Source: a virus
Lineage: Duplodnaviria > Heunggongvirae > Uroviricota > Caudoviricetes
DNA length: 25,360 bases
Direction: 5' to 3' (one strand)
IMG/VR virus record: IMGVR_UViG_2529292905_000020
Part shown: piece by piece, positions 11,668 through 22,169 of the stretch
Layout of the letters: every line of letters starts with the position of its first letter
How positions within the stretch are numbered: position 1 is the stretch's first letter
Made by a program: the position numbers and the translations under genes
Notes under the pieces: generated by a model
What the model was told of the DNA's origin: nothing
Database searches by the model: none
What the model saw: only the letters and a program-made list of their open reading frames with translations

Positions 11668-12002
11668 CATCCTCGTCCTTCAGGACGTGGATTCTTTTTC
11701 CGGATGCCGCGCCAGCGGCATGTAGGGGCAGCTCACAAAACGGAAAAAATTGTACGCTAAGCCTCGCCAGGTGAACTGAATTCATTCCGATATGGGAATT
11801 CCCATATCGGGCGAAAACGGTTTGCTGTAACGGCAGAGTTAAGTAGGATTGCTGCGGGTGCTTGAGGCTATCTGCCTCGGGCATGAACACCAACGGCAGA
11901 TAGATAAAAGCCCCACCCGACTATAAATCGAAGTGAGGCCCCTATATGCTCGTCACATATAGATTGCCTCTTACGGACCGAAAGGTCAAGGAGAAGCAGG
12001 CT

Positions 12003-12158
12003 ATGAAGCAGCAAAAGGCGATGTTAATCGCCCTGATCGTCATCTGTTTAACCGTCATAGTGACGGCACTGGTAACGAGGAAAGACCTCTGCGAGGTACG
12101 AATCCGAACCGGCCAGACGGAGGTCGCTGTCTTCACAGCTTACGAACCTGAGGAGTAA
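12003..12158 (+). CDS. hokD: Hok/Gef-family membrane toxin (51 aa)
   Basis: MKQQKAMLIALIVICLTVIVTALVTRKDLCEVRIRTGQTEVAVFTAYEPEE is a Hok-family sequence, matching my recollection of HokD/RelF. Structured leader and 3' fold-back complement present. Confidence 0.85.
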   Translation: MKQQKAMLIALIVICLTVIVTALVTRKDLCEVRIRTGQTEVAVFTAYEPEE

Positions 12159-12386: not shown

Positions 12387-13274
12387 TCAGGCTGCCAGAT
12401 CATCGTTTCTGATGGAAGCATAATAAGCTTTTTCTGCTTCTGCCGGAGGGATATGACCCAGCCTTCCCAGCAATCGTCGATTGTTATACCAGTCCACCCA
12501 CGTGAGTGTGGCCAGTTCCACTTCTGCACGGTTTTTCCAGCTCTTACGGTGTATTACCTCCGCTTTGTAAAGACCATTGATGCTCTCCGCCATCGCGTTG
12601 TCATACGAGTCACCTGTACTCCCTGTTGATGCCAGCAGTTTTGCTTCTTTTAGTCGCTCCGTATAGGCCAGTGATACATACTGAGAACCTTTATCACTGT
12701 GATGGACTGTGCCGGACGGCCGACGGGCCCACAACGCCTGCTCCAGTGCATCCAGCACGAATGTCGTTTCCATAGACGATGAGACTCGCCACCCCACGAT
12801 GCATCCGGCAAACACATCAATGATGAACGCCACATAGACGAAGCCCTGCCATGTGCTGACGTAAGTAAAATCAGCCACCCACAGCTGGTCAGGACGTTCT
12901 GCCACGAACTGACGGTTTACGCGGTCGCCTGCGGAAACGGCTTTCCGGCTGACGGTAGTACGGACCTTTTTACCCCGGAGAACACCGGCAAGTCCCATAA
13001 CCGCCATGAGGCGCGCCACTGTACATCTGGCCACCCTGATACCTTCGCGTAACAACTGGCGCCAGACTTTACGCACACCGTACACCTGATGATTTTCATC
13101 GTATACGCGCTGTATCTCTCTCTTCAGCCAGTCATCGCGCTGCGCACGGGCACTGCGTTTATCAGGATGATGTCGCTGTTGCTGACAGTGGTAATACGTT
13201 GACGGGGCAATATGCAGTTCACTGCATACCGGTCCGACCCCGTACTGCTCACGCAGCTTATCCAGCAGTGGCAT
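12387..13274 (-). CDS. IS629 transposase OrfB (DDE catalytic domain)
   Basis: 295-aa ORF with the IS3-family OrfB C-terminus (...LGHIPPAEAEKAYYASIRNDDLAA). Confidence 0.9.
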   Translation of the reverse strand: MPLLDKLREQYGVGPVCSELHIAPSTYYHCQQQRHHPDKRSARAQRDDWLKREIQRVYDENHQVYGVRKVWRQLLREGIRVARCTVARLMAVMGLAGVLRGKKVRTTVSRKAVSAGDRVNRQFVAERPDQLWVADFTYVSTWQGFVYVAFIIDVFAGCIVGWRVSSSMETTFVLDALEQALWARRPSGTVHHSDKGSQYVSLAYTERLKEAKLLASTGSTGDSYDNAMAESINGLYKAEVIHRKSWKNRAEVELATLTWVDWYNNRRLLGRLGHIPPAEAEKAYYASIRNDDLAA

Positions 13275-13600
13275 TATTTTTTCCAGAGGCGGTCGAACTC
13301 CGCCTTCGCAAAATAAGCGGAAGCCTGGCGAAGGATATCGTTACTGCGGCGCAGTTCACGATTTTCACGTTCCAGCTCTTTCAGACGCTGACGTTCAGCG
13401 GTGGTGAATCCACCATCACCACTCCCGGTATCCCGCTCATGCTGACGAACCCACACACGCAGAGTCTCTGGCGTACAGCCAATCTTTGGGGCAATGGAAC
13501 AAATTGCCGCCCATTGTGAGTCATATTCGCCCTGACTTTCCAGAACCATACGAACTGCCCGTTGACGGACCTCGGGGGAAAAACGTGTATTTTTAGTCAT
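13274..13600 (-). CDS. IS629 transposase OrfA (HTH)
   Basis: 108-aa [22 protein letters not shown]... matching remembered IS629 OrfA. Its stop overlaps the OrfB ATG (TAATG) beside an A6 run. Confidence 0.9.
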
Positions 13601-15355: not shown

Positions 15356-15721
15356 ATGACTGAACGGATAGAATTTGTTTTGCCTTACCCGCCGACGGTG
15401 AATACCTACTGGCGACGTCATGGCAATACGTATTTCATCTCGGAAGCCGGAAAGCGTTATCGCCGTGATGTGGCGCTAATTGTTCGCCAGCAGCGGCTGA
15501 AATTAAACCTGTCCGGAAGGCTGGTGATAAAGATTATTGCAGAGCCACCGGATAAGCGCCGTCGTGACCTGGACAATATCCTGAAAGCACCACTGGATGT
15601 GCTGACGCATGCCGGACTTCTCATAGACGACGAGCAGTTTGATGAAATCAATATTGTGCGCGGTCAGCTCGTTCCTGGTGGGCGGCTGGGGATAAAAATC
15701 ACAGAACTGGAGTGCGCATGA
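15356..15721 (+). CDS. rusA: RusA Holliday-junction resolvase
   Basis: 121-aa ORF with RusA hallmarks (YPPTVNTYWRRHGN..., RRRDLDNILKAPLDVLTHAGLLIDDEQ). Confidence 0.9.
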   Translation: MTERIEFVLPYPPTVNTYWRRHGNTYFISEAGKRYRRDVALIVRQQRLKLNLSGRLVIKIIAEPPDKRRRDLDNILKAPLDVLTHAGLLIDDEQFDEINIVRGQLVPGGRLGIKITELECA

Positions 15722-15876
15722 ATAACCACTATTTACAGTTTGTGCGTGAGCAGCTCATTATCGCCACCGCTGATTTGAGTGGGGCAACAAAAGGTCAGCT
15801 TGAAGCCTGGCAGGAGAATGCCATGTTCGATACAGGGCGTTACAGGCGAAAAAAATCCGGTACCGCGATGAAGTGA
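15718..15876 (+). CDS. Small hypothetical protein (52 aa)
   Basis: Below the ORF-track size cutoff. ATG overlaps the rusA stop (ATGA); its stop overlaps the GTG of the next gene. Position matches the small gene between rusA and Q in DLP12-type prophages. Confidence 0.3.
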   Translation: MNNHYLQFVREQLIIATADLSGATKGQLEAWQENAMFDTGRYRRKKSGTAMK

Positions 15877-16406
15877 CTGGAAAAATGATAACGCGGGATA
15901 ATCCACCAATCCCGGGAAAGCAATCGCTGGCGAAGGTGACGTCAATTCCTCTGGTCAGTCCGGTTGAGTTTTCGACATCATCGTGGCGGCGGGCTGTTCT
16001 GTCTCTTGAAGAACATCATAAAGCCTGGTTGTTGTGGTGTTACAGCGGGAGTATTTGTTGGGAATATCAGATCGCGATAACACAGTGGGCGTGGAATGAA
16101 TTTAATACTCAATCCGGTACCAGAAAAATTGCTGGGAAAACGCAGGAACGCCTGAAAAAATTAATCTGGCTGGCGGCGCAGGCAGTAAAAGCAGAACTTT
16201 TTGGTGGGGAAGGTTATGAATATCAGGAGCTGGCATTACTGGCGGGAGTGACAACTAAAAACTGGTCCAAAACATTTACTCGTCACTGGGTTGCAATGAA
16301 ACACATTTTTCACCGACTGGATAGTGAGGCTTTATTATTTGTAATGAGAACACGTTCAAAACAAAAGGCGGCATTTTCAAAGCAAAGTGTTGCAAAAGTA
16401 GATTGA
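15873..16406 (+). CDS. Putative late-gene antiterminator (Q-like)
   Basis: 177-aa ORF between rusA and the late promoter/tRNA cluster. Assignment is mainly positional; the family is not confidently recognised. Confidence 0.5.
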   Translation: MTGKMITRDNPPIPGKQSLAKVTSIPLVSPVEFSTSSWRRAVLSLEEHHKAWLLWCYSGSICWEYQIAITQWAWNEFNTQSGTRKIAGKTQERLKKLIWLAAQAVKAELFGGEGYEYQELALLAGVTTKNWSKTFTRHWVAMKHIFHRLDSEALLFVMRTRSKQKAAFSKQSVAKVD

Positions 16407-16601: not shown

Positions 16602-16677
16602 GGCCCTTTAGCTCAGTGGTGAGAGCGAGCGACTCATAATCGCCAGGTCGCTGGTTCAAATCCAGCAAGGGCCACCA
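16602..16677 (+). tRNA. ileZ: tRNA-Ile2 (anticodon CAU, lysidine type)
   Basis: 76-nt cloverleaf. Acceptor GGCCCTT/AAGGGCC, anticodon loop CUCAUAA, T-loop TTCAAAT, encoded CCA. Closely resembles E. coli ileX. Confidence 0.9.
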
Positions 16678-16767: not shown

Positions 16768-16841
16768 GCGTTGTTAGCTCAGCAGGACAGAGCAATTGCC
16801 TTCTAAGCAATCGGTCACTGGTTCGACTCCAGTACAACGCG
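16768..16841 (+). tRNA. argO: tRNA-Arg (anticodon UCU)
   Basis: 74-nt cloverleaf. Acceptor GCGTTGT/ACAACGC, D-stem GCTC/GAGC, anticodon stem ATTGC/GCAAT with loop CTTCTAA, T-arm ACTGG-TTCGACT-CCAGT. 3' CCA not encoded. The argO name is positional (third tRNA of the Stx-phage-type trio). Confidence 0.85.
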
Positions 16842-17610: not shown

Positions 17611-17811
17611 TTTTTTTGTTTGCTGTTTATTAAAAACACTTCTGCATGGTGAATCCCCCTGTGCGGTGGGGCAATCAGCAAGAAGGAATATGGGGTAATC
17701 GCGGATTCAGGTGCTGATACTGAATTCACCGGGAGGCACCCGGCACCATGCTTTGCCACAAAAGTGTTATTTCTGTTTTTCTCAAACTATCATCGTTATC
17801 CCTTTATTTTC

Positions 17812-17838
17812 GGCTGCGCATGGCGCGGCCTTTTTTTT
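17812..17838 (+). terminator. Intrinsic terminator upstream of the esterase gene
   Basis: GGCTGCGC-ATG-GCGCGGCC stem (one G-U pair) followed by T8. Confidence 0.55.
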
Positions 17839-17924: not shown

Positions 17925-19775
17925 ATGTCGATTAAACATTACGATGTTATCAGGGCGGCGTCGCCGTCAGACCTTGCGGAAAAGCTGACACACAAACTGA
18001 AAGAGGGCTGGCAGCCATACGGCGGACCGGTTGCCATTACGCCGTACACACTGATGCAGGCGGTGGCTATTGAAGGAGAGCCACAGGTCGGCCCTTCATC
18101 TGAGCCGGATTGGTACTACGTCATCGTACTGGCCGGGCAGTCCAATGCAATGGCTTACGGTGAAGGGCTTCCGCTGCCGGATTCATACGATGCTCCGGAT
18201 CCGCGCATTAAACAGCTGGCGCGCCGCAGTACAGTGACGCCGGGTGGGGCTGCCTGCAGATATAACGATATTATTCCGGCTGACCACTGTCTGCATGATG
18301 TGCAGGATATGAGTACGCTGAATCATCCGAGGGCTGACCTGAGCAAAGGGCAGTACGGCTGTGTCGGTCAGGGTTTACATATTGCCAAAAAACTGCTCCC
18401 GTATATCCCGAATAACGCGGGGATCCTGCTGGTACCATGCTGTCGTGGTGGTTCGGCATTTACCCAGGGCGCGGAGGGGACATTCAGCGAGTCCACGGGG
18501 GCCAGTCAGGATTCGGCACGCTGGGGGGTGGGCAAGCCGTTATATCAGGATCTGATTTCCCGCACAAAAGCGGCATTGCAGAAAAATCCCAAAAACGTTC
18601 TGCTGGCCGTCTGCTGGATGCAGGGTGAGTTTGACATGAGCGCCGCCACCCACGCACAGCAACCTGCGCTGTTTACAGCCATGCTGACACAGTTTCGTGC
18701 TGACCTCTCCGTGTTTAACGCGCAGTGCCATGGTGGCAGTGCTGCAGATGTGCCGTGGGTTTGTGGTGACACGACGTATTACTGGAAAAATACATACGCT
18801 ACCCAGTACGACACCGTGTACGGCGGGTATAAAAACAGGGAGAGTGAGGGCGTTTATTTTGTGCCCTTCATGACAGATGGTAACGGCGTCAATACCGCCA
18901 CTAACGCGCCGGCAGAAGATCCGGATATTCCGGCATCAGGATATTACGGTGCGGCATCGAGAACGAATGGAAACCAGGTATCATCAAACCGCCCGACACA
19001 TTTCAGTTCATGGGCGCGCAGGAGCATTATTCCGGATCGTCTGGCAACCGCTATTCTGAACGCAGCCGGGCGCACCTCAGCCTTCATCAGTGGTAAGGCA
19101 CCGGAAATCAAACCCTCGCCCGGCGGCAACACGCCATCGGGTCCGTCTGCAGATACGTCCGTTCGCACAATCTCCCTGCTGCCGGCAGCCGGAGAGGCTG
19201 CTGCGCAGGGCTGGAGCATTAAGGATGGCGGAATTCAGTTGTCAGATGGTGTATTTAAGATCACCAAGCAGAGCAATAAAACCTGGTCCCTGACGCATCC
19301 GGTGGATGACGCAATTACCCTGCTGACACAGGGCGGCAGACTGACCTGTAAGTTCCGCCTGTCAGGCGCACTGACCAACAATCAGTTCGGGCTGGGGATT
19401 TATCTGTATACGGATGCTCCCGTTCCTGATGGTGTGGCGATGACGGGTACCGGTAATCCGTTCCTGATGTCGTACTTCACTCAGACCACTGACGGCAGAG
19501 TGAATCTGATGCATCACAGGAAAGCCGGAAACACGAAGCTGGGGGAGTTCGGCGATTACGGTAACGACTGGCAGACGCTGGAGCTGGTGTTCACCGCCGG
19601 CAGTGCCACGGTTACTCCGAAACTGAATGGAGTGGCTGGCCCGGCATTCCAGGTTATAAAAGACAGTCTGACACTGGGACTGAATGCGCTGACGCTGACG
19701 GATGTTACAAAAAATGCAGCGTATGGCGTTGAGATAGAAAGTCTGATGCTGGAGATAAATGCACCGGCAGCATAA
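17925..19775 (+). CDS. nanS: NanS-p-like sialate O-acetylesterase (N-terminal DUF1737-like segment plus SGNH/SASA esterase domain)
   Basis: 616-aa ORF with GGGAGAAA upstream. VIVLAGQSNAMAYGEG matches the GQSN block of sialate O-acetylesterases. Sits where Stx prophages carry nanS-p next to stx. Confidence 0.8.
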   Translation: MSIKHYDVIRAASPSDLAEKLTHKLKEGWQPYGGPVAITPYTLMQAVAIEGEPQVGPSSEPDWYYVIVLAGQSNAMAYGEGLPLPDSYDAPDPRIKQLARRSTVTPGGAACRYNDIIPADHCLHDVQDMSTLNHPRADLSKGQYGCVGQGLHIAKKLLPYIPNNAGILLVPCCRGGSAFTQGAEGTFSESTGASQDSARWGVGKPLYQDLISRTKAALQKNPKNVLLAVCWMQGEFDMSAATHAQQPALFTAMLTQFRADLSVFNAQCHGGSAADVPWVCGDTTYYWKNTYATQYDTVYGGYKNRESEGVYFVPFMTDGNGVNTATNAPAEDPDIPASGYYGAASRTNGNQVSSNRPTHFSSWARRSIIPDRLATAILNAAGRTSAFISGKAPEIKPSPGGNTPSGPSADTSVRTISLLPAAGEAAAQGWSIKDGGIQLSDGVFKITKQSNKTWSLTHPVDDAITLLTQGGRLTCKFRLSGALTNNQFGLGIYLYTDAPVPDGVAMTGTGNPFLMSYFTQTTDGRVNLMHHRKAGNTKLGEFGDYGNDWQTLELVFTAGSATVTPKLNGVAGPAFQVIKDSLTLGLNALTLTDVTKNAAYGVEIESLMLEINAPAA

Positions 19776-19776
19776 T

Positions 19777-20072
19777 AAAAAAAGCCAGCGACTGACCTGA
19801 AAAAGAAGACGCTGGCTAAAAGGCCTTATATGTTTGTAGAGACTTATTTTTCACAGACAGCAATGATGCCTGTCAATATATTATCAATATGCGGATTGTT
19901 TCAGTTACAGATGCCTTATTAAGGAAAAAAACAGCCAGCACTGACTTTCGGTGGAGAGGTGCTGGCTCAAAAGGATAGATGTACTTCACATGTTGCTTCT
20001 ATATGGCAGTACATTTTCTGACAGACAGTGACGGATGTTGTCAAGATATTGTGTCATTTATAACCTGAATCA
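19777..20072. repeat. Two diverged copies of a ~130-bp element, each starting with an A-run and a GCCAGC...GCTGGC hairpin
   Basis: Copy 1 19777-19905 (hairpin 19784-19816); copy 2 19925-20072 (hairpin 19934-19966). Shared blocks AAAAGG, TTTTC(A/T)CAGACAG, TGTCAA(T/G)ATATT. Read on the minus strand each hairpin is followed by a U-run. Confidence 0.5.
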
Positions 20073-20141
20073 GGGGAGGCCGGAATGTTATCTGGCATTT
20101 TTAGCAGAGCCTGAATGCCATAATCACGGCTCCCGGCGTTG

Positions 20142-20178
20142 GCCGTCAGTGGGTGACACTGGCGGCTTTTTTGTTTTT
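20142..20178 (+). terminator. Strong intrinsic terminator 45 nt upstream of the holin gene
   Basis: GCCGTCAGTG-GGTGA-CACTGGCGGC (10-bp stem, one G-U) followed by TTTTTTGTTTTT. Confidence 0.6.
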
Positions 20179-20222
20179 CTTTACTTTCATTTTCTGTCGG
20201 CGGTGACGGAGACATACATCAG

Positions 20223-20429
20223 ATGGAAAAAATCACAACAGGTGTGTCATACACCACGTCAGCGGTGGGGACGGGATACTGGTTACTGCAGCTGCTGGAC
20301 AAAGTCTCTCCGTCCCAGTGGGTGGCAATAGGTGTGCTGGGAAGTCTGCTGTTTGGCCTGCTGACGTATCTGACAAATCTTTATTTCAAGATTAAAGAAG
20401 ATAAGCGTAAGGCTGCGAGAGGTGAATAA
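20223..20429 (+). CDS. Holin (phage 21 S-type pinholin)
   Basis: 68-aa [71 protein letters not shown] closely resembles remembered S21. Confidence 0.9.
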
Positions 20430-21854: not shown

Positions 21855-22169
21855 ATGCTACATGATCACGTGGCAGAATGTCTAGAGAAAAAAGGACTGT
21901 ACCGGAGAGCAGCTGAACGATGGGCAAAAGTGATGGTACAGCTAAGTGATGACCAGAAAAGAAAAGTGGCGGCACAGAAACGAGCAGAGTGTTTGCGTAA
22001 GGCGCGCCGGACTCCGGTTTCACCGGTGAACCTGACCGAAATAAAACAAGCGGTCAACAGACTACATTCTGAGTTGGGAATGGGATTTGAAGAGCGGCGG
22101 GTATTCCGACGATATAAAGGGACAGGAGAACAGAATACGTCCGGAAACGCGCGGTCAAAAAAATGCTAA
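21855..22169 (+). CDS. PerC-family transcriptional regulator (Pch-like)
   Basis: 104-aa ORF with GGAGG upstream. N-terminal VAECLEKKGLYRRAAERWAKVM resembles the conserved PerC/Pch N-terminus. AT-rich, preceded by a T-rich tract. Confidence 0.55.
   Translation: MLHDHVAECLEKKGLYRRAAERWAKVMVQLSDDQKRKVAAQKRAECLRKARRTPVSPVNLTEIKQAVNRLHSELGMGFEERRVFRRYKGTGEQNTSGNARSKKC

Follow-up and report, generated by a model that had tools for sequence, protein, structure and literature searches.

The pasA locus of a lambdoid prophage pairs a published Hfq-binding small RNA gene with a diverged neighbouring copy

Tandemly duplicated small RNA (sRNA) pairs are known from Escherichia coli (OmrA/OmrB) and Pseudomonas (PrrF1/PrrF2), and a U-rich stretch followed by a terminator hairpin and a U7 tail is the classic Hfq-binding 3' module. 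The late operons of lambdoid phages contain terminators that are passed by Q, as in lambda tR' and the Q systems of phages 82 and H-19B, and inserted genes are, in the moron model of Juhala and Hendrix, reportedly flanked by a promoter and a terminator.

The described system closest to the locus analysed here is PasA of EPEC E2348/69, which is Hfq-dependent on Northern blot and takes part in 41 RIL-seq interactions (Pearl Mizrahi et al. 2021, PMC8550237). Its major form of 85 nt runs from 743499 to 743415 and its minor form of 236 nt from 743499 to 743264, both on the minus strand of NC_011601 (PMC8550237, Table S6), and the 5' arm of the PasA terminator, GCCAGCACCU, has been proposed as its seed (PMC8550237, Fig. 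S5). EcOnc51 (Sp12) and EcOnc52 (Sp4) were reported from EHEC Sakai as orphan Hfq-CRAC sites with Rho-independent terminators flagged (Tree et al. 2014, PMC4104026, Table S2) and later listed as EHEC homologues of PasA (PMC8550237); as published they are predicted sRNAs without Northern blot, treated as PasA homologues and not as two units of one tandem locus. A recent preprint places pasA in the order esterase, pasA, holin, lysozyme, uses phage YYZ-2008 (NC_011356) as its representative PasA phage, and reports a distance of 22 kb between the closest pasA genes, with tandem duplication excluded as their origin (Zhu, Shabalina & Storz 2026, bioRxiv 10.64898/2026.05.13.724894). AgvB and AsxR (Rfam RF02702 and RF02703) resemble the Pas units in being short Hfq-bound prophage sRNAs from the moron region between Q and S, antisense to the late operon, with 5' ends that vary and a 3' terminator module that is conserved.

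We analysed a window of 25,360 nucleotides (IMG/VR record IMGVR_UViG_2529292905_000020) comprising a lambdoid prophage integrated beside ompW, with the gene order integrase, Q, tRNA genes, SASA/NanS-p esterase, class II pinholin, SAR lysozyme (RrrD), Rz and terminase. The Pas region fills the 447 bp that separate the esterase stop codon (19775) from the holin ATG (20223). A first-pass annotation made from the letters alone had described diverged tandem elements of ~130 bp with terminator-like hairpins on the minus strand, followed by a strong plus-strand terminator. The features are listed below in window positions, with the esterase-proximal element called repeat 1 and the holin-proximal element repeat 2.

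17925-19775, plus strand: SASA/NanS-p family sialate esterase gene (open reading frame; annotation of identical and near-identical records)
19774-19842, minus strand: repeat 1 RNA, an EcOnc52-type paralogue of ~69 nt (EcOnc52 match; also the 3' part of the 236-nt PasA form); its repeat 1-specific sequence is UCUCUACAAACAUAUAAGGCC
19776-19817, minus strand: intrinsic terminator of repeat 1 (stem 19783-19817, then U7, the plus-strand A-run 19777-83)
19847-19882, minus strand: promoter-like core of repeat 1 (-35 TTGACA at 19876-19871, then CTGTCTGTGAAAAAT)
20009 to 19925, minus strand: PasA sRNA (repeat 2), 85-nt major form (identity with E2348/69 NC_011601; published ends)
19925-19967, minus strand: intrinsic terminator of PasA (stem 19933-19967, then G and U7, 19925-19931)
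20010-20050, minus strand: promoter-like core upstream of PasA (-35 TTGACA at 20044-20039, then CTGTCTGTCAGAAAAT; -10 poor or unclear)
20051-20140, plus strand: structured spacer (weak hairpin then T-run, 20079-20096; G-tract 20071-20085)
20141-20179, plus strand: strong intrinsic terminator (11-bp stem 20141-20167, then TTTTTTGTTTTT; phage 434, OL657226, 45673-45709)
20223-20429, plus strand: class II (S21-type) pinholin gene, first in the lysis cassette (open reading frame; annotation of related records)

The segment 19740-20240 is identical to the region between E2348C_0688 and E2348C_0689 in prophage PP2 of EPEC E2348/69. The published PasA ends 743499, 743415 and 743264 map to 20009, 19925 and 19774, respectively, and the published Northern probe, GCCAGCACTGACTTTCGGTGGAGAG, has an exact plus-strand match at 19934-19958. 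Given the identical intergenic region and the mapping of both the probe and the RNA ends, we identify repeat 2 as PasA and the 236-nt form as read-through stopped at the terminator of repeat 1. Repeat 2 equals the E2348/69 RNA in every respect compared (100% identity, flanks, 3' stem-loop with poly-U, and seed), lying on the opposite strand between the SASA esterase gene and the class II holin and lysozyme genes. The PasA target motif CUGAUGCUGGA, reported in the esterase 3' end (PMC8550237), sits at 19743-19753 in the esterase gene of the window. The region is also shared with known phages: 600 bp around the feature are 100% identical in phage 434, whose GenBank record (OL657226) already has all three terminators annotated here, two on the minus strand and one on the plus strand, and phage YYZ-2008 and many Stx1a phages are 99.3% identical to it.

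The tandem elements are therefore the published Hfq-binding sRNA gene pasA and a diverged neighbouring copy, a real and already described feature that needs no new mechanism because the window holds the exact pasA locus. The first-pass annotation had allowed that the repeats might be sRNA genes or duplicated remnants, and the Northern, Hfq and RIL-seq data on PasA (PMC8550237) together with the EcOnc51 and EcOnc52 peaks (PMC4104026) bear this out. We consider it highly probable (roughly 0.85) that the feature is best explained as the pasA locus of a lambdoid prophage, a compact cassette inserted after the esterase gene of the late operon and ahead of the lysis genes. Its minus strand has two homologous sRNA units arranged head to tail, and in each a promoter-like core with TTGACA leads into a short 5' body that varies, then a U-rich run, and finally a GCCAGC...GCUGGC hairpin and its U7 tail. 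The holin-proximal unit gives rise to PasA (85 nt), an Hfq-dependent base-pairing sRNA with its seed in the 5' arm of the terminator, and polymerase moving past this terminator halts at that of repeat 1, producing the 236-nt minor form. The esterase-proximal unit is a diverged EcOnc52-type paralogue, found on Hfq with a 3' end of its own. Through Hfq, sRNAs of the PasA family link EPEC, EHEC and STEC prophages to the regulation of host and virulence genes.

Aligned over 133 positions with several indels, the two direct repeats agree at 99 (74%), which gives z ~10 against 500 shuffles. The diverged tandem arrangement noted at first thus stands, whereas the length of ~130 bp gives way to a period of 150 bp from terminator to terminator (19777 vs 19927) and of 168 bp between promoter cores. 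Common to both repeats is a 30-nt core, ACAGACAG-N10-TGTCAA-N-ATATT, at 19853-19882 and 20021-20050; it occurs nowhere else in the window and had 0 matches in shuffled sequences even at 2 mismatches. An nhmmer profile built only from sequences of the repeat 2 class recovered 19777-19866 (repeat 1) with E=8e-4, and the reverse search from a repeat 1 profile recovered repeat 2 with E=3.4e-3, the other unit being the top non-self match each way and the next matches having E>0.2. Run on the 25 kb, a covariance model detected two copies and no more, at 124.6 and 87 bits; with filters off it revealed no third copy or further family member in the window, where the next best match (13.8 bits) is the palindromic hairpin itself.

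Repeat 1 has the same TTGACA promoter core as PasA and PasC and a 10-bp terminator helix in the same alignment columns with GC/AU exchange. It differs from PasA, PasA-2 and PasC in having a shorter 5' body (by ~18 nt relative to PasA) and another terminator loop, and BLAST does not detect the relationship. As judged from these alignments, repeat 1 is a homologue of PasA and PasC, with a weak but significant similarity below the reach of BLAST. Neither RNA matched an Rfam family at the gathering threshold or at E<=10, AgvB/AsxR (RF02702/RF02703) included; weak Rfam matches to U12 and a snoRNA were attributed to chance. Like OmrA/OmrB and PrrF1/PrrF2, the Pas pair consists of adjacent homologous units on the same strand, each with its own terminator and the first one read through. 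Its divergence is far greater than theirs, what its units share being limited to the promoter core and terminator frame, and the promoter of its second unit is putative. The Pas units also differ from AgvB and AsxR, which are shorter (51-60 nt) and form a convergent pair in the interval from the moron CDS to the esterase gene, whereas the Pas locus is downstream of the esterase gene. In the window, the site between moron CDS and esterase gene is held by an STnc100/PasD-type RNA.

G+C-rich hairpins followed by a U-tract, the signature of intrinsic terminators, were found at 19776-19817 and 19925-19967 on the minus strand and at 20141-20179 on the plus strand, and the published RNA 3' ends 743264 and 743415 fall in the U-tracts of the two minus-strand sites (PMC8550237). 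The pair of GCCAGC...GCTGGC hairpins reported earlier was confirmed, each being followed by U7, with fold energies of -16.5 kcal/mol (z -5.0) for repeat 1 and -16.3 kcal/mol (z -3.3) for repeat 2. The U-tract of the repeat 1 terminator abuts the TAATAA stop codons of the esterase gene. What lies behind the hairpins on the plus strand is TAAAAGG or TCAAAAGG, and since neither is a T-run, they can terminate on the minus strand only; the esterase/late transcript must consequently be antisense to the two sRNAs. In 24 distinct unit sequences, 93% of the cells of the terminator helix are paired, vs 22-54% when the 3' partner is slid. The helix is kept by compensatory changes at pair 85-111, where 14 sequences have GC and 10 have AU, and at pair 84-112, which is CG, UA or UG, a covariation that rests on few allele classes because sequence diversity is low, reflecting horizontal spread.

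The first-pass annotation had interpreted the hairpins as devices that stop antisense transcription from entering the late operon. Non-genic insulators acting against transcription from the lysis and holin side would be consistent with hairpins that terminate on the minus strand only, the second of them adjoining the esterase stop codon, and two terminators in series would block read-through efficiently, the 236-nt form indicating that the first one is leaky. However, transcription of the RNAs that end there begins within the intergenic region, and these RNAs are abundant, bind Hfq and have trans targets (PMC8550237, PMC4104026). Moreover, both hairpins follow a conserved body and a conserved promoter-like core, neither of which a bare terminator needs, and no strong minus-strand promoter is predicted downstream in the holin region. 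We therefore regard insulation as a very improbable explanation of the repeats. Termination on the minus strand stands, but what is stopped is the sRNAs' own transcription, and protection of the late operon is a secondary purpose at best. Under the pasA reading, both minus-strand terminators would also keep sRNA transcription from entering the esterase gene antisense.

A good sigma-70 -10 hexamer was not found 16-18 bp past either TTGACA, and a promoter scan called neither unit. The 5' end of PasA may derive from processing of a longer transcript (Zhu et al., bioRxiv 10.64898/2026.05.13.724894). Among PasA, PasA-2 and PasC variants the promoter core does not vary, an invariance that is partly by construction because the pattern used to collect the loci fixes 19 of the core bases. 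Three independent rearrangements deleted repeat 2 yet kept the repeat 1 core, with breakpoints 21-25 bp upstream of TTGACA.

The EcOnc52 peak (Sakai Sp4, 1181998-1182075, minus strand) matches repeat 1, its core mapping to 19805-19842, and EcOnc51 is the 3' half of a repeat 2 of PasA-2 type. EcOnc52 differs from repeat 1 of the window only by a loop 2 nt shorter and one extra C before the U-tract. The peak begins a few nucleotides past the promoter-like core, ends in the U-tract and does not reach the spacer; in Sakai Sp4, IS629 has replaced repeat 2. The repeat 1 copies of Sp4 and Sp12 are identical, so the EcOnc52 reads are not uniquely assignable and are no proof of expression from Sp4 only. 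RIL-seq lists the region of repeat 1 separately, as pasA.E2348C_0688.IGR, with five interactions in which it is always RNA2 (PMC8550237). One such partner is escD, chimeric with the RNA2 fragment 743267-743294 (PMC8550237), which maps to 19777-19804 of the window. According to these published data, repeat 1 RNA is on Hfq with its own 3' end, and we infer that it may also be transcribed from its own promoter. This suggests that the EcOnc52-type RNA, as an Hfq-bound prophage sRNA, deserves a name and a target search.

A contrasting possibility, which we do not favour but take seriously, is that repeat 1 is a decayed duplicate that does no more than back up the PasA terminator and extend the 3' end of read-through RNA, without being an sRNA gene itself. 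The authors who mapped PasA list repeat 1 only as part of the 236-nt minor form, which they interpret as read-through (PMC8550237), its body is shorter and its -10 region poor, and no separate peak was called over repeat 1 in the tandem locus of Sp12. Against decay, the core and the U-rich/terminator module of repeat 1 are kept as well as those of PasA while its 5' body varies, as in PasA, PasA-2 and PasC. The EcOnc52 peak starts just after the core and stays out of the spacer, repeat 1 occurs without an intact repeat 2 in ~7 of 121 loci, three independent rearrangements took away repeat 2 and left repeat 1, and repeat 1 has RIL-seq partners as RNA2.

The first-pass annotation had also proposed a search of other prophages for the element. 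Scanning IMG/VR with a pattern of the shared core recovered 120 loci, or 121 with the window, and the tandem architecture is present in 74 of the 121: in 62 it is intact, with PasA followed by repeat 1 (33 loci) or PasA-2 followed by repeat 1 (29). Single units of PasC type, fused directly to the esterase junction, account for 23 of the 121 loci, and a single variant with a GCCAGUAC...GUACUGGC stem for 9, the same variant occurring in tandem in 2 loci. Repeat 1 is found alone in 6 of the 121, and beside no intact repeat 2 in ~7. Essentially every PasA or PasA-2 gene of the 121-locus set has a repeat 1 partner, and both classes of unit evolve alike in that the promoter core is near-invariant, the 5' body variable, and the U-rich stretch and terminator conserved. 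The preprint missed the diverged partner because repeat 1 is too diverged for its BLAST survey.

Several alleles bridge the two classes. The PasC-type terminator is also found as the repeat 1 allele of one tandem locus, there are chimeras of a PasA body with a PasC terminator, and PasC loci have the same esterase junction as repeat 1. We infer from these three observations that PasC and the single-unit alleles would be products of deletion or recombination between repeated terminator modules. Tentatively, and at something short of even odds, we propose that the pasA locus consists of tandem diverged paralogous sRNA genes, PasA or PasA-2 together with an EcOnc52-type gene that has its own promoter, 5' seed and targets. 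Under this proposal, unequal recombination between "CC-UUUU-AGCCAGC...GCUGGCU-U7" modules would have made PasC, the single-unit GTAC allele and the chimeras, and both RNAs would be antisense to the transcript that reaches the lysis genes. If true, tandem duplication and module shuffling drive the diversification of the PasA family, contrary to the 2026 preprint. The diverged tandem partner of PasA matters for how accessory sRNA repertoires evolve. The novelty here is modest, comprising the constant pairing and homology of PasA with an EcOnc52-type tandem partner and a putative recombination origin of PasC.

Among species-representative genomes the tandem occurs in E. albertii only, in a copy nearly identical to that of the window, and for that reason the locus gives no phylogenetic footprint. 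As a comparison of sequences, this near-identity fits horizontal spread within Escherichia. Eight other pattern matches in these genomes are single and in unrelated taxa, with ~4 expected by chance (19 fixed bases, 596 Gb), and were set aside. Plasmid matches with repeat 1 only were rejected as an independent context, being prophage remnants beside IS elements.

On the plus strand, a strong terminator 45 nt before the holin gene was confirmed as first described (20178 to the ATG at 20223), its 11-bp stem folding with -21.6 kcal/mol (z -3.4). Between the PasA core and the holin ATG the sequence is nearly invariant in 112 related loci apart from the G-tract 20071-20085, which varies in length and sequence. 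In the phage collection, this segment, with its spacer and terminator, occurs only in the 28 records with Pas units, and because of this confinement we assign it to the Pas cassette. No promoter is predicted between 20179 and the holin ATG. Terminator-like sites on the plus strand between Q and S, as consensus matches only, lie at 16858-75, 17812-30, 20079-96 and 20141-67, and there is a bidirectional hairpin at 16467-96; one terminator-like site before S is the terminator of the STnc100/PasD-type sRNA just upstream of the esterase gene.

The plus-strand terminator resembles the terminators of the Q systems in being strong, intrinsic and inside the late unit, here just before S with Q encoded upstream. 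It differs from tR' in not being promoter-proximal, in being the last of several, and in belonging to the Pas cassette rather than the phage backbone. By analogy with lambdoid phages, a need of the lysis genes for Q-type read-through would fit this layout, and the terminator may insulate them as the last barrier to leaky plus-strand transcription in lysogens. We predict that it would end unmodified transcription arriving from the STnc100/PasD-type gene, the esterase gene or read-through, and that the pinholin and SAR-endolysin genes would thereby be silent in the lysogen, since, as lambdoid biology suggests, passage would be restricted to RNA polymerase that started at PR' and was modified by Q. 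Placed immediately ahead of the pinholin gene, the terminator could plausibly guard lysogens against accidental lysis; the literature search found nothing specific on terminators upstream of S in Stx phages. The Q homologue (15717-16406), upstream on the strand of the lysis genes, carries a frameshift caused by a 1-bp deletion in an A8 run (A7 within 15843-15860), so that Q-dependent lysis may be defunct in this prophage. The prophage may thus be defective in its own late expression, or the frameshift may be a homopolymer base-call error.

A functional product might instead lie on the plus strand, either as an sRNA of ~105 nt transcribed from the palindromic TTGTCAA (TTGTCA-15 nt-TATAAC) or as one derived from the 3'UTR of the esterase/late transcript. 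The segment 20071-20180 folds strongly (-45.7 kcal/mol, z -3.2), is highly conserved and linked to the cassette, and intergenic plus-strand RNA appears in RIL-seq chimeras with PasB (PMC8550237). This RNA is nevertheless RNA1 in ~97% of its chimeras, which is the behaviour of a target and not of an sRNA (PMC8550237). Its chimeric fragment (window 20004-20022) maps before the putative start site, and in Sakai Sp12 the region has no Hfq-CRAC peak. The two hexamers of the candidate promoter are 15 bp apart, and the -10 hexamer is without its conserved final T. A plus-strand product as the functional RNA of the locus thus seems to us hardly probable, and an sRNA in 20071-20179 was judged unlikely on its RNA1 behaviour and the lack of a peak in Sp12. 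The ~105-nt candidate would be divergent to the minus-strand units and end at the 20141-20179 terminator.

Finally, the antisense arrangement raises the question of whether the main job of the sRNAs is to pair in cis with the esterase/late transcript, which would be fully complementary to PasA and the repeat 1 RNA, tuning esterase or lysis expression through RNase III cleavage or interference. The hairpins have no T-runs on the plus strand, where the first strong stop is at 20141-20179, and esterase 3' ends (E2348C_0688 and E2348C_1246) are among the RIL-seq partners of PasA (PMC8550237). Most PasA partners, however, are trans-encoded core or LEE genes, and the reported esterase site (19743-19753) falls outside the overlap with the 85-nt PasA, making a primary role in cis unlikely. 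At the site of the cassette, Stx2a phages have DUF826 and DUF1378 ORFs instead.

The PasA sRNA gene of this prophage (repeat 2; 19925-20009, minus strand) and its diverged EcOnc52-type paralogue (repeat 1; 19774-19842, minus strand) lie downstream of a SASA/NanS-p esterase gene (17925-19775, plus strand), with which two further features are associated.

Features associated with the esterase gene
17615-17838, plus strand: STnc100-family sRNA (Rfam RF02076, 100.8 bits)
19743-19753: PasA target motif CUGAUGCUGGA, as published (PMC8550237)

The target motif lies within the final esterase codons at a distance of 20 nt from the repeat 1 terminator, which it precedes, and the PasA locus therefore adjoins one of its own reported targets. 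On its upstream side the esterase gene is adjoined by the STnc100-family sRNA, which has its own terminator (17812-17830) and aligns only loosely with PasD2 of EPEC E2348/69. The resulting order of STnc100/PasD-type sRNA, esterase and PasA is the arrangement described in a 2026 preprint (Zhu, Shabalina and Storz, bioRxiv 10.64898/2026.05.13.724894).

Among the surveyed IMG/VR loci, repeat 2 has been lost through three independent rearrangements (L040/L127, L032 and L044), comprising an IS629 insertion, a deletion that fuses the locus to sequence on the downstream side of the lysis genes, and one further junction. The three breakpoints (window 19895-19900) are at most ~4 bp apart and lie 21-25 bp upstream of the promoter-like TTGACA core of repeat 1, which is intact in all three. 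This clustering beside repeat 1 could reflect either a target hotspot or selection, although three events are anecdotal. Variation is concentrated in a G-rich tract, CAGGGG[AGG]CCGG (20071-20085), which lies within a plus-strand hairpin, on the upstream side of the PasA -35 element at a distance of 25-40 bp. Both its length and its sequence vary among otherwise almost identical loci (alleles GGGGAGG, GGGGTTGG, G8-9AG, G6-7 and others), with no compensatory change in the partner strand among the loci compared.

The Q antiterminator gene (15717-16406) is broken into ORFs of 54 and 177 aa because an A-run (within 15843-15860) is A7 in the window instead of the A8 found in strain 13E0780, which carries a near-identical prophage. 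The prophage may be incapable of antiterminating its own late operon, or else the A7 is a sequencing error in the homopolymer. Two tRNA genes (16602-16674 and 16768-16841; Ile and Arg according to the annotation of a near-identical genome) are located between Q and the esterase gene, as they are in Stx phages; the window has no stx genes. Next come a TerB pseudogene and a DUF3927 ORF.

Further upstream are a type I toxin-antitoxin RNA of the sok/hok (hokD) kind (11856-12005) and an element of the IS3 family (minus strand, 13203-13319; ALIL frameshift pseudoknot), the latter absent at the corresponding position from the closest complete genomes. In the 13E0780 prophage, the annotation places paa, a gene for an AcfC-family adhesin, at the corresponding upstream position. 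Just downstream of the lysis cassette is a gene for a PerC-family transcriptional regulator (21855-22169). PerC-like proteins activate the LEE in EPEC and EHEC, and this gene neighbours an sRNA locus with LEE partners such as escD.
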